Shown here piece by piece: positions 10,734 through 62,566 of a DNA stretch of 64,000 nucleotides. Position 1 is the stretch's first letter, and each line of letters starts with the position of its first letter. The notes under the pieces were generated by a model, which was given only the letters and a program-made list of their open reading frames with translations, did not search any database and was not told the DNA's origin. Location: assembly GCA_033581555.1 (NCBI GenBank), contig JAVQSZ010000004.1, positions 93,758-157,757 on the forward strand, written 5' to 3'. A program made the translations under genes and the position numbers. Origin of the DNA: Nitrososphaerota archaeon. GTDB taxonomy: Archaea; Thermoproteota; Nitrososphaeria_A; Caldarchaeales; Calditenuaceae.

Positions 10734-10829
10734 GGGGCCGTAGTCCAGCATGGAGTGGACGCCCGGCTAGCACGGAGGAGTGCCCGGACTGGGCCCGGGA
10801 GGTCGCCGGTTCAAATCCGGCCGGCCCCA
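10734..10829 (+). tRNA. tRNA-Pro(UGG) with 21-nt intron at non-canonical position 33/34 (10769-10789)
   Basis: Acceptor GGGGCCG/CGGCCCC-A, T-loop TTCAAAT; BHB CCGG-CT^A-GCAC...GTGC-CCGG-AC^T; splicing restores loop CT-TGG-GC. Confidence 0.9.
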
Positions 10830-21823: not shown

Positions 21824-22120
21824 GGGGACGGGCAGCTGGGCGGGCTTCGGGGAGATCCCGGGGAAGTTCCTCCCTCCCACGGTGGGCCCGGTGCCGTGAG
21901 GCACGGGGGGAGACCTCCGGCAACGCCACAGAAACGATACCCCTCCGGCCGGATGCGGGCTGACGCGGGAGGTCCCGCCGACGACGGCCGGAGACCGGAT
22001 GAAACGGGCGTCCCGGGCGGAGAAAGTGGTCGGGGCCGTGAGCCCCACCGTCGAGCCCCGGAGCGACGAGAAGACGGATCCCGCCTAGAACAGAAGGAGG
22101 GCTACGGGCTGCCCGTCCCC
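21824..22120 (+). ncRNA. rnpB: Archaeal RNase P RNA
   Basis: P1 GGGGACGGGCAGC/GCTGCCCGTCCCC, P4 5' GGAAGTTCCTCC, ACAGAAAC, GAAACGG, 3' AACAGAAGGAGGGCTA. Confidence 0.92.
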
Positions 22121-43845: not shown

Positions 43846-43931
43846 GCCCCGGTAGCTCAGCGGGAGAGCGACCGGCTGAAGTCCTTCGGACAGAGACCGG
43901 TAGGTCGTGGGTTCAAGTCCCACCCGGGGCA
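43846..43931 (+). tRNA. tRNA-Phe(GAA) with 14-nt intron at 37/38 (43882-43895)
   Basis: GCCCCGG/CCGGGGC-A acceptor, ACCGG-CTGAAG^...^A-CCGGT anticodon arm, TTCAAGT T-loop. Confidence 0.9.
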
Positions 43932-58605: not shown

Positions 58606-58640
58606 GGGAGGGCGTTGGAGCGCGGCAAGATAGGGCGCGC
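58606..58640 (+). other. 5' arm of the 23S pre-rRNA BHB processing stem
   Basis: GGGAGGGCGTTGGAGCGC-GGCA-AGA-TAGGGCGCGC pairs with 62533-62566. Confidence 0.85.
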
Positions 58641-58870
58641 CTTGGCCCGAGCAGGGGTACGCCGGCCGGTGGATGCCTCGGCTTGGGCGCCGAAGAAGGA
58701 CGTGGCAAGCTGCGATAAGCTCCGGGTACCCGCAGGCAGGGGTGGATCCGGAGATCTCCCAATGGGACCTCCTGCGGTGGGCTTCGGCTCGCCGCGTTCC
58801 CGGGCTCAAGCCTGGGATCGGGGACCCCCCGAACGGAAGCATCCAAGTAGGGGGAGGAGGAGAAATCAAA

Positions 58871-58904
<34 letters not shown>

Positions 58905-60694
58905 GCAGCCCAAACCGAACCCCCTGGGGAAACTCAGGGGGAATGTGGGGTTATGGGCCGGAGGCCCGCCCTGAAGACCGAGCCGAACTCCCCTGGAATG
59001 GGGGGCCAAAGAGGGTGAAAGCCCCGTAGGCGAAGGTCGGATGGGCGATGCTCTGGACCCAGAGTACCGCACCTCGGATATGGTGCGGGAAGTCGGGGGC
59101 CACTGGCCTCCAAGGCTAAATACGTCCCAAGACCGATAGCGGACCAGTAGCGTGAGCGAAAGGTGAAAAGTACCCCGGGAGGGGGGTGAAAAGCGCCTGA
59201 AACCGGCCGGTAACAGACGTGGGCGGCCCGAAAGGGAAATCCCCGTCAAGGCCTCGATGAGGGGCCGCGCGGGGACAATCCCAGGGTCGCCCGCTCCGTC
59301 TTGAAACACGGGCCGGGGAGTTCACGGGTGTGGCGAGTCTAAGGGTGAAAGCCCGAAGGCGTAGGGAAACCGACGTGCCCGCGGCGGCCTTGAGCCGCGA
59401 GGGGCGGGGTCCGAAAGGGCCTGTAGCCACGCCCGTGAGGCTAGAAACCGGGCGATCTAGCCCTGGGCAGGGTGAAGCCGGGGGAAACCCCGGTCGAGGC
59501 CCGAATAGGGGTCCTGACGTGCAATTCGGTCCCCTGACCTGGGGCTAGGAGTCAAAAGCTAACCGAGCCCGGTGATAGCTAGTTCCCCCCGAAGTGTCTC
59601 GCAGGACAGCCTCGGGGGAGGTTGCCTGCGGGGTAGGGCACTGATGGGGGAGAAAGGGGCCGGCGAGGCCCCGCTCTCCTTTCAAACTACGAACCCGCGG
59701 GCGCCGTAGATCCCGGGAGTGGGGTACCGGGGGTAAGCTCCGGGACCGAGAGGGGAACAACCCAGACCCCGGGTTAAGGCCCCGAAGTGCCCGCTAAGTG
59801 ACAAACCGAAGGGCGTCTCCACCCTGAGACAGCGGGGCCGTAGGCTTAGAAGCAGCCATCGGCTAAGAAGTGCGTAACAGCTTACCCGCCGAGGGTGGGG
59901 GCCCCGAAAATTGACGGGTCTAAGCGGGCCGCCGAAACCCGGGCTCACCCGCGCCGTGCGCGGGCGGGGGTAGGGGGGCGTGGCGGTCGGGCGGAAGCGG
60001 GGCCGTGAGGTCCCGTGGACCGGTCGCCAATGTAGATCCCGGTGGTAGTAGACAGCGAAGAGGGGTGGGAATCCCCTCCGCCGGAAGGGCACGGGTTCCC
60101 CGGCAATGCGTCGTCAGCCGGGGGTAAGCCGGTCCTAAGGCCGACCTTAACCGGGTAGGCCGAAGGGGAAGCCGGTTAAGATTCCGGCGCCTCCCGGGTA
60201 GTCGCGGCGACGCAAGCCGGGCCCCTGACGCTTCGGGGTAGGCTGACCGGGGCCGTAGCTCCGGCCAAGCGCTGAAGCCTGGGGAGTGCCGTAAAGGCGA
60301 GAACCAGGTGAAGGCGCGACGGGGCGGCGTATGCCGCTTCGGTCGATCCCTGGAGCCCGTGAAAAGGGGGTCCGGTTCGATCCCGGGAGACCGTACCTAG
60401 ATCCGACACTGGTGCCCCTGGCTGAGAAGGCCAAGGCGTCTGGGGTGACTCCGGGCCAGGGAACTCGGCAAATTAGCCCCGTAACCTCGGGAGAAGGGGT
60501 GCCTGCTTTCCTCTCCGACGAGGAGGGGTTGGCAGGTCGCAGTGACAAGGGGGTCCTGACTGTTTAATAAAAACATAGGAAGCCGCGAGGCCGAAAGGCT
60601 TCGAACGGCTTCTGAATCCTGGCCAGCACCGGTACCTGAAACCCGGGTCCAACCGGGATAAGGGCCGGCTAGCGCCGGGGGTAATCCTGACCCT

Positions 60695-61517
60695 CGGGTA
60701 AGGGGGTCGTTAAACGCGGCTGTATGCGGGGAAGGGGGAGGTCCTGGATACCCTCGGGGTAACAACTCCATGACCGGTGATCCCGACCCGCAGGAAACCG
60801 CCCCGTGAACGGCTAATACCGGACGTCGCTCAGACAACTCGGTGACCCTCGCCTACCTGATCGGCGTCATGCTCGGAGACGGCGGCGTCTACGGCAACTA
60901 TTACACCGTCTTCTGCAGGGACCAGTCCTTTGAGTTCGTCGAATACGTCGCCCGACTCGTGGAGGAACTCTTCGGGATAAGGCCGAACGTGAGGAGGGCA
61001 GGCTCGAATAACTACGTCGCCTCGACGAACGTCCGCTGGGTCCACAACTTCCTTCTGAGGATAGGGTTCCCGAAGGGGCGGAAGCTCGTCAACGCCGAGA
61101 TACCGCCGCTCTTCAGGGAAAGCCTGGACGTCGTCAGGGGGCTCTTCGACACCGAGGGCTACGTCGGGGTCGACGTTCAGCGGCACGGCGAGAGAGAGTA
61201 TCGGTACCCATACGTCGGTTTCGACGCGATCGCGAGACCCCTCGTCGTCCAATCGCACCACATCCTCTCCGCCAACGGGATCCAGTCCACCTACTCCCTG
61301 AAACGACCTCATGCGTGGGGGAAACACCAGCAGTGGAGGCTGCAGGTCAAGGGATGGGAGAACGTGGAGCTGTTCCGCGAGAAGGTAGGGTTCAGGCATC
61401 CCGTCAAGGCGGCAAGGATCGAGCAGATTTTGCGTGAGGGCGGGATCCTCAGAGACCATACGCCGCGCACCCGTCAGGGGTGATGATATGGTCCACCACC
61501 AACTCCTGTTGGTGGAG
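60695..61517 (+). mobile_element. Group I self-splicing intron at 23S position ~L1923 (823 nt)
   Basis: 5' exon ends in U paired to G in P1 (GACCCU/GGGGUC); P10 UAAG/CUUA; P3 CGCGGC/GCCGCG; P4 UGCGGG/CCCGCA; R CAGAGACCA and S GAUAUGGUCC (P7 GACCA/UGGUC); P8 and P9 hairpins; terminal G. Confidence 0.9.
60842..61483 (+). CDS. Intron-encoded double-motif LAGLIDADG homing endonuclease
   Basis: LAYLIGVMLGDGGV and VVRGLFDTEGYV motifs; VGFRHPVK tail. Confidence 0.92.
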   Translation: MTLAYLIGVMLGDGGVYGNYYTVFCRDQSFEFVEYVARLVEELFGIRPNVRRAGSNNYVASTNVRWVHNFLLRIGFPKGRKLVNAEIPPLFRESLDVVRGLFDTEGYVGVDVQRHGEREYRYPYVGFDAIARPLVVQSHHILSANGIQSTYSLKRPHAWGKHQQWRLQVKGWENVELFREKVGFRHPVKAARIEQILREGGILRDHTPRTRQG

Positions 61518-61823
61518 CTTAAGGTAGCCAAATGCCTTGTCGGGTAAGTTCCGACGCGCATGAATGGATCAACGAGGGCCCCACTGTCCCGGCCCGGAGC
61601 CCCGTGAACCCACGTAACGTGGACGAACAGTCCACGAGCCCCCAGCGGGGAGAGAAGACCCTGTGGAGCTTTACTGCAGCCTGTCGCTGCGGGACGGCTC
61701 TGGGTGCATAGCGTAGCCGGGAGCCGTCGATCCGGACCTCTCCGGGGGTCCGGGGAGGCGCCAATGTAACACCGGCCACCTGGGGCTGTCCCGCTAACCG
61801 GGGCCTGTGCCCTGGGACAACGG

Positions 61824-61854
<31 letters not shown>

Positions 61855-62532
61855 CCCGAAAAGATATCGGGGGAGCCCAAAGGTCGGCTCAAGCGGGACA
61901 GAAACCCGCTGTAGAGTGCAAGGGCAAAAGCCGGCCTGACAGGACCCTCGAACGCAAGGGGTCCTGAGGGGAAACCCGGGCCTAGCGATCCATCGGCCCC
62001 TACCAGTGGGGGCCGGTGGTGACAGAAAAGTTACCCCAGGGATAACAGGCTCGTCGCGGGCGAGAGTCCCCATCGACCCCGCGGCTTGGTACCTCGATGT
62101 CGGCTCTTCCCATCCTGGCCTCGCAGCAGGGGCCAAGGGTGAGGCTGCTCGCCTATCAAAGGGGAACGTGAGCTGGGTTTAGACCGGCGTGAGCCAGGTC
62201 GGATTCTACCTGCTGGGGGTGCGGGCCGCCTGAGGGTAGGGCCCTCCTAGTACGAGAGGAACGGAGGGCCGGGGCCAACGGTGTACCGGTCGTCCTACAG
62301 GGCGACGCCGGGCAGCCGCGCCCCTGGGGATAAGGGCTGAAAGCATCTAAGCCCGAAGCCACTCCCAAAAATAGGCGGCCGATCGGGGCCTATAGGGCCC
62401 GGTAACGGGCCTTGGGCCCCGACGAGGGCTCCCCTAGAAGAGGGGGTTGATGGGGTGGGCGTGTAAGGGCGGAGGCGTACGCCGGACGCCCTCAGCGCGC
62501 CGCTCCCAATCGCCCGAGCTGCTCGGATCCCA

Positions 62533-62566
62533 GCGCGCCCTATGTCAAAGCGCTCCACGCCCTCCC
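62533..62566 (+). other. 3' arm of the 23S pre-rRNA BHB processing stem
   Basis: GCGCGCCCTA-TGTC-AAA-GCGCTCCACGCCCTCCC, followed by T-rich tracts (possible terminator). Confidence 0.85.

Follow-up and report, generated by a model that had tools for sequence, protein, structure and literature searches.

Nawrocki, Jones, and Eddy reported 39 archaeal group I introns in 2018, with LAGLIDADG_1, LAGLIDADG_2, or LAGLIDADG_3 open reading frames (ORFs) in 21 of them and with group I and bulge-helix-bulge (BHB) introns coexisting in one gene in some archaea (PMC6125680). Nine introns in their Table 1, of subtype IB4 and 278 to 1133 nt long by coordinates, lie at position 1923 of the large-subunit (LSU) rRNA and include IB4.9 (Aigarchaeota, 1133 nt), IB4.11, IB4.13, and others. 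In the chloroplast of Chlamydomonas eugametos the same position holds the group I intron of the LAGLIDADG endonuclease I-CeuI, whose target is called "the 1923 LSU target site" in an excerpt of PMC3315327. Here we analyzed a 64,000-nt stretch, referred to below as the window, from a Nitrososphaerota archaeon of the Calditenuaceae (contig JAVQSZ010000004.1 of assembly GCA_033581555.1, positions 93,758 to 157,757). The sole 23S rRNA gene of this hot-spring Caldarchaeales (Aigarchaeota) archaeon carries, at E. coli position 1923, an 823-nt insertion that is very likely an IB4-like group I intron. The DNA runs that contain most of the window's sequence words are labelled hot springs metagenome.

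The window intron has in common with the archaeal IB4 introns at LSU/1923 its gene, position, lineage (Aigarchaeota/Caldarchaeales), and the interruption of its core by a LAGLIDADG ORF, although none of the nine listed introns is 823 nt long (PMC6125680). A preliminary description, made from this DNA alone, had guessed subclass IB, in agreement with the published IB4 assignment for the same site and lineage, and had named the position as the I-CeuI site, which is correct (excerpt of PMC3315327) and where archaeal IB4 introns occur too (PMC6125680). It had also called archaeal group I introns uncommon and little tested. Cases at LSU/1923, one of them in Aigarchaeota, and genes holding both group I and BHB introns had been on record since 2018, and our literature searches turned up no experimental self-splicing test of any archaeal group I intron. 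The literature on Calditenuis introns yielded no description of this particular one. Compared by description, the I-CeuI intron matches it in position, intron class, and possession of a LAGLIDADG endonuclease, but I-CeuI is homodimeric (excerpt of PMC3315327), whereas the window ORF combines two motifs in a single chain and falls in another Pfam family. Group I introns in the 23S genes of thermophilic bacteria, self-splicing according to a title cited in an excerpt of PMC11270868, are like the window intron in host type, gene, and intron class and differ in that the host is bacterial. The window intron is a further example of a published kind and leaves the 2018 picture unchanged; it enlarges the small published set of archaeal group I introns by a case backed by covariation and drawn from a high-temperature lineage.

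Insertion limits and the predicted ribozyme core

The 23S rRNA gene (Table 1) extends over 3886 nt, against 2987 positions in the Rfam model, and is the only one in its assembly (1 match in 1.43 Mb on 72 contigs), so the insert must be removed. We compared the window genome (G000) with a set of 401 genomes sampled from the phylum. The gene is split between GACCCU and CUUAAGG and reads, with slashes at the junctions, ...ggtaatcctgaccct/CGGGTAAGGGGGTC...GTTGGTGGAG/cttaaggtagcc. The uninterrupted sequence ...gaccct/cttaaggtagcc is found in one genome of the same genus (G145, locus L029) and in two of the same family (G297 and G098); these empty sites fix the insertion at 823 nt, positions 60695 to 61517, where it had originally been placed. 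Because a C is present at both sides of the insertion, the junction is ambiguous by 1 nt; the alternative register would end the intron in C, and the U...G register alone fits both P1 and P10. The G+C content is 0.612 in the intron, 0.661 and 0.665 in the exons, and 0.644 in the window.

All of the helices named in the preliminary description (P1 with its U-G pair, the internal guide with P10, P3, P4, P7, P8, and P9, followed by a terminal G) are perfectly complementary in the window, and by the counts on the homologous introns described below they exceed chance. Together with P5, P5a, P5b, P6, and P6a they make up a core that lacks P2, has few peripheral elements, and comprises about 190 nt outside the ORF. 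P6 and P6a directly follow P4, and 36 of 46 helix pairs are G-C. P7 pairs 61454-58 with 61489-93 and adds G61452-C61494. The stretches UAUGCGGGGAAGG, GACCCGCAGG, UCAGAGACCAUACG, and GAUGAUAUGGUCC resemble the classical group I elements P, Q, R, and S; by the Tetrahymena and Azoarcus cores, G61454-C61493, beside the bulged A61453, is presumably the guanosine-binding pair.

Table 1. Window coordinates of the 23S rRNA gene, its processing stem, and the elements of the intron
Feature	Position	Strand	Remarks
23S (LSU) rRNA gene	58644..62529	+	Rfam RF02540 (archaeal LSU), 2492.7 bits
23S processing stem, 5' arm	58616..58654	+	partner arm 62519-62557; inverted repeat I1, canonical BHB
Group I intron (very likely)	60695..61517	+	823 nt; from empty sites in relatives, structure counts, and custom covariance models
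P1 5' exon strand GACCCU	60689..60694	+	pairs with 60703-60708; U60694 is the final exon base
Internal guide GGGGUC (P1 3' strand)	60703..60708	+	G60703 pairs with U60694
P10 guide strand UAAG	60699..60702	+	in P1 loop; pairs with exon-2 start CUUA 61518-61521
P3 5' strand CGCGGC	60715..60720	+	partner 61462-61467
P3 3' strand GCCGCG	61462..61467	+	forms P3/P7 pseudoknot
P4-P5 domain	60725..60792	+	P4 60725-30/60787-92; J4/5 GAA
P5	60734-37/60781-84	+	
P5a	60740-48/60767-75	+	one C/U mismatch
P5b	60749-53/60757-61	+	A-rich bulge ACAAC 60762-66
P6 GGA/UCC	60793-95/61446-48	+	read from sequence; GG/CC invariant; outside pair count
P6a CCGCCC/GGGCGG	60798-803/61438-43	+	long-range helix enclosing ORF
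Putative homing endonuclease ORF	60842..61483	+	213 aa, GTG start; in P6a loop
J6/7 UCA and P7 5' strand	61449..61458	+	G61452, bulged A61453, GACCA 61454-58; element UCAGAGACCAUACG
P8 hairpin CACCC gucag GGGUG	61468..61482	+	5 bp; length variable among homologues
J8/7 AUGAUA and P7 3' strand UGGUCC	61483..61494	+	element GAUGAUAUGGUCC; invariant
P9 hairpin	61496..61515	+	8 bp; followed by A61516
Terminal G (omega-G)	61517	+	final intron base

In the proposed mechanism, the guide GGGGUC would pair with exon GACCCU to form P1, in which the U60694.G60703 wobble would mark the 5' splice site, and the compact P2-less core (P3, P4-P5-P5a-P5b, P6-P6a, P7, P8, and P9) would fold with the P3/P7 pseudoknot. 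An external guanosine would dock at G61454-C61493 in P7, beside the bulged A61453, and attack after U60694. The UAAG strand would then hold exon 2 through P10 while the terminal G61517 replaces the external guanosine, and the freed U of exon 1 would attack after G61517, giving the product ...GACCCU-CUUAAGG.... Judged from its sequence, the intron is very probably functional, and we predict a core that is catalytic, independent of protein, and active at high temperature. Being compact and G-C-rich, it is a convenient candidate for a self-splicing test.

Covariation among homologous introns

A DNA search of the 401 genomes with this intron as query gave matches in 22, G000 included. From 18 of these genomes we cut out one complete intron each, all at the same site and 751 to 1137 nt long; left out were G273 (intron split over two contig ends), G357 (3' junction removed by a contig end), and G216 and G360 (only matches of 25 to 34 nt inside the ORF, at loci lacking the 23S exon motif). 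We aligned the 18 introns with plain MAFFT and scored the alignment against the 47 pairs of the proposed structure. Standard pairs fill 95.2% of 827 cells, compared with 36.3 to 47.2% when the partners are slid by 1 to 3 columns, and 17 of the 47 pairs change on both sides, compared with 2 to 7 after sliding. In 500 shuffles, the observed percentage paired, the number of pairs or of cells changed on both sides, and the covariation score are never reached, and the observed number of further pair types is reached once; the shuffles overstate significance because the introns are related and query-derived, and the slid-partner control is for that reason the fairer one.

Across the 18 introns, pairing is complete (100% of cells) in P1, P3, P4, P6a, and P7. 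One exon/guide pair of P1 (columns 10/34) is U-A in 10 introns and C-G in the other 8, and both the U.G at the 5' splice site and the intron-final G are present in 18 of 18. Changes on both sides occur at three of six pairs in P3, with up to three pair types each (C-G/G-C/U-A and others), at four of six in P6a, and at six of eight in P9, which is 83.5% paired on this plain alignment; P8 (helices 7 and 8 of the count) is 97% and 88% paired. The three features of the presumed guanosine-binding region, G61452-C61494, bulged A61453, and G61454-C61493, are invariant in all 18, so P7 carries no covariation information. The P4/P5/P5a/P5b layout is common to the 18 single-sequence minimum-free-energy folds, as judged by eye from the dot-bracket strings and with a few small local differences, and the P5 and P5a sequences differ among introns that have this layout in common. 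Applied to the 11 most distant introns, RNAalifold predicts P1, P4, P5, P5a, P5b, P7, P8, and P9 unaided; of the 28 pairs it proposes, the 12 that change on both sides fall within P1, P4, P5, P5a, or P5b.

Custom covariance models of the 5' domain (R1) and 3' domain (R2) were built only from 11 homologues, each from a different genus or family than the window and each encoding an endonuclease of another family. Each matches the 64-kb window once above noise, R1 at 60683-60810 (92.4 bits, E = 1.2e-24) and R2 at 61432-61527 (73.2 bits, E = 4.3e-20), and R2 has no second copy in the window's own genome. Among the ribozyme parts that went into R1 and R2 are those of a 1133-nt intron at 1923 in another genome of the order (G026), which equals IB4.9 in length, site, and lineage.

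Several results weigh against assignment to group I. Rfam model RF00028 (Intron_gpI) has no match in the window at its gathering score and none at E ≤ 10 on 60600-61620 (1021 nt) or 61280-61522 (243 nt); in one homologue (L017) it reaches 18.2 bits (E = 0.043), a weak match that also counts in favor of group I, yet below threshold and far under the 50-bit cut-off. The preliminary description had proposed a covariance-model search as the check and the lack of a hit as refutation. The search succeeds in both halves of the intron with the custom models and fails with RF00028, and such a failure is not decisive: RF00028 gave no significant archaeal match in the 2018 survey, where only the IB4 and IA3 subtype models yielded the 39 accepted introns (PMC6125680), and because of this reported blindness we do not take the RF00028 miss as a refutation. 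P10 is weak, as its inner two pairs form in 18 of 18 introns and its outer two in only 13 of 16 and 8 of 16. P7 and most of P1 and P4 are invariant and hence uninformative on covariation, and the 18 introns, mutually related and found with this intron as query, are not independent samples. Folding energy is ordinary (z = -1.58 and -1.61; among 200 shuffles, 11 and 15 are as stable), z-scores that are uninformative because the sequence is G+C-rich.

A further point of this kind is that the RNA data contain nothing specific to this organism. Metatranscriptome runs X8, X9, and X19 yield 5, 7, and 1 contigs, respectively, that join 60694 to 61518, and their contigs do not cover 60786-61433; DNA run X1 covers the whole intron and lacks the 60694-61518 joint. 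We rejected the joint contigs as evidence of splicing, since the same joint would come from every archaeon whose site is uninterrupted; they have only 22 to 26 letters on the shorter side, and they neither support nor contradict a group I intron. Nor is the low cover that some RNA runs give to 60732-60785 and 61434-61487, two pieces of the core, specific to this organism.

Endonuclease gene and proposed intron mobility

The ORF in the P6a loop matches Pfam PF14528 (LAGLIDADG_3) at 49.1 bits, over a cut-off of 22.5, and has two LAGLIDADG motifs, LIGVMLGDGG (with D13) and VRGLFDTEGY (with E105). An ORF of this type is intact in all seven genomes that carry it, with lengths of 213 to 229 aa and 62 to 89% identity between the window ORF and the six others. 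Records of relatives retrieved with the ORF bear the names Candidatus Caldarchaeales, Candidatus Calditenuis, Archaeon HR02, and Nitrososphaerota. E105 is invariant in the seven and D13 is present in six; in the remaining one (L045, genome G138), codon 13 gives GNGG instead of GDGG, with N for D13, and this ORF may have lost one catalytic acid and be a decaying endonuclease. The last 46 nt of the window ORF (61438-61483, 15 codons) overlap the 3' strands of P6a and P6, J6/7, P7, the 3' strand of P3, and P8, and the C-terminal peptide EGGILRDHTPR is invariant in seven of seven, apparently because overlap with the RNA core constrains it. The other 11 introns have ORFs without BLASTP similarity to the window ORF, either single-motif ones of about 180 aa or doubled ones of about 362 aa, and Pfam places the three tested (L010, L012, and L021) in LAGLIDADG_1. 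One kind of ribozyme at one site thus carries two endonuclease families, LAGLIDADG_3 in the window intron and, in the distant homologues examined here, a second type that is LAGLIDADG_1 in the three tested.

Site occupancy within the family is patchy. Among 15 sampled family genomes, G000 included, seven have the LAGLIDADG_3 version, three the other version, and three an empty site, and two lack that stretch of 23S in their assemblies. Such patchiness, combined with an endonuclease gene that is intact, is consistent with homing, in which the LAGLIDADG_3 endonuclease encoded in the P6a loop would cut intronless alleles and the intron would spread by repair. Acquisition by homing had been proposed at the outset; the intact gene and the empty and occupied sites within one genus fit mobility, and cleavage of the site is a predicted activity. 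The empty sites of the same genus offer a ready substrate for testing homing. At position 61546 the window has A (in GUCGGGUAAGUUCC), all other genomes of the family have G with or without the intron, and other families have A; co-conversion of the flanking exon at this position was considered and dropped, because the A/G state shows no pattern with intron presence.

Searches against solved structures gave marginal results. The single ORF had one such match, to the archaeal "putative homing endonuclease" 2dch_X (E = 0.008); a profile of the seven ORFs had its best E value, 0.036, with unrelated YEATS-domain proteins and reached 0.15 with 2dch_X. By sequence, then, the endonuclease is without a close solved relative. 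Its distant relatives (25 to 36% identity) were found both in very long open frames and, in the 23S of a relative, in a BHB-like insertion. An 849-bp contig of the window's own assembly (G000:C30:1-849, locus L069) holds a low-G+C LAGLIDADG ORF of 173 aa, open at the contig end and 38% identical to residues 2-107 of the window ORF; a run of X suggests ambiguous bases, and the contig may be stray or a fragment of another element.

We offer tentatively, as a doubtful rather than a probable extension, the idea that a ribozyme lineage has stayed fixed at LSU/1923 in at least seven families while exchanging its passenger gene, and that its G-C-rich, P2-less core of about 190 nt works free of protein at about 70 to 85°C. 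If the LAGLIDADG_3 gene came from the endonuclease pool of BHB introns or inteins, this would amount to direct gene traffic between the two intron types found together in archaeal rRNA genes and would bear on the suggested descent of BHB introns from group I introns.

Alternative explanations and rRNA processing

The alternative that survives best, though we consider it unlikely, is that the intron is group I by descent and not self-sufficient, needing a protein helper (its own LAGLIDADG protein as a maturase, or a host factor) or having a dead core that leaves the gene crippled. LAGLIDADG proteins act as maturases in fungal mitochondria, the window ORF overlaps 46 nt of the core, and the core is small, with no P2 and few peripheral elements. 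Relatives of the host also live hot, with Aigarchaeota placed at 68 to 87°C in an excerpt of PMC4681859, and a small RNA may need stabilizing there. All core helices are nevertheless intact and rich in G-C pairs, and the compensatory changes across the 18 introns argue for continued selection on the RNA fold; a dead intron in the sole 23S gene of the assembly would be lethal.

Archaeal rRNA introns of the BHB kind can also carry LAGLIDADG endonucleases (the I-DmoI type). We regard as very improbable the reading that the insertion is an ordinary intron of this sort, excised by EndA with ligation of the exons, as are the rRNA introns with endonuclease genes in Thermoproteales and Desulfurococcales. 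The two have in common a thermophilic archaeal host, an rRNA gene, and an ORF of the LAGLIDADG_3 family, whose only structural match, marginal as it is, is to the archaeal 2dch_X; moreover, such insertions, including a canonical BHB intron, are found in the 23S gene of another genome of the order (G207), and the processing stem of the window's own transcript has a BHB. The deciding evidence is at the junctions. The scan required a 3-nt bulge on each of the two strands, a 4-bp central helix between the bulges, and flanking helices beyond them. In both junction registers and at three cleavage offsets, the window intron and all 18 homologues have no BHB at their ends, in line with the original claim of none there: the best central helix has three of four pairs, and two flanking helices are never present. 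No strict motif with flanks of at least 4 bp lies within about 60 nt of the junctions, and a relaxed scan of the 23S insertion likewise has no match where the motif would be required. As positive controls, the scanner recovered the 601-nt canonical BHB intron of G207 and the BHB of the processing stem. The window intron instead has a covarying group I core, in which the changes in P3 and P6a, the long-range P7, and the U.G and terminal-G rules would have no role in a BHB intron. This alternative is therefore largely refuted.

That a foreign intron was joined into the 23S gene of this bin as an assembly artefact or chimera is scarcely credible: rRNA genes are often misassembled in metagenome bins and the intron is slightly lower in G+C than its exons, but 17 other genomes have a homologous intron at precisely this site, the P1 exon base matches the intron's own guide, and in a DNA run, which may be the source of the assembly, one contig (record 3, 60557-60735) crosses the 5' junction and further contigs cover the entire intron.

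BHB processing of the same pre-rRNA, which had been proposed to operate alongside group I splicing, is borne out by the 23S processing stem. Its central helix is formed by GGCA 58624-27 and UGUC 62543-46, with bulges AGA 58628-30 and AAA 62547-49; in the strict scan the inner flanking helix has 10 bp and the outer 8 bp. EndA is predicted to cut after 58629 and 62548, 14 nt before and 19 nt after the ends of the 23S gene in the Rfam match. With this BHB beside a group I intron, ribozyme splicing and EndA processing could be compared on one transcript.

Other insertions occur in the 23S genes of the comparison set. The G207 gene (locus L070, G207:C50:3800-7000) has three: one of about 664 nt, the 601-nt canonical BHB intron, and a 755-nt group I intron at 1923. 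The ends of the 664-nt insertion form CCUC/GGAG with an 8-bp inner stem, which is BHB-like, and its LAGLIDADG_3 ORF is 28% identical to that of the window. In G194 (L013), about 31 nt downstream of the 1923 site, the 23S departs from all others after ...GTCGGGTAAG, which suggests a further insertion near the group I intron.

The only 16S gene of the window's assembly is on another contig (G000:C5:42712-44201, L038), is 1490 nt long, and is without a large intron; no small-subunit rRNA match lies in the 58 kb upstream of the window 23S, and the rRNA genes appear to be unlinked. The window also holds two tRNA genes, at 43846-43931 (86 nt) and 10734-10829 (96 nt), both of which, by their lengths, contain introns; the strict BHB scan missed both, and by eye the intron of the 86-nt gene fits only a relaxed motif, with three of four central pairs. 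An archaeal RNase P RNA (Rfam RF00373, 151.5 bits) lies at 21828-22116.

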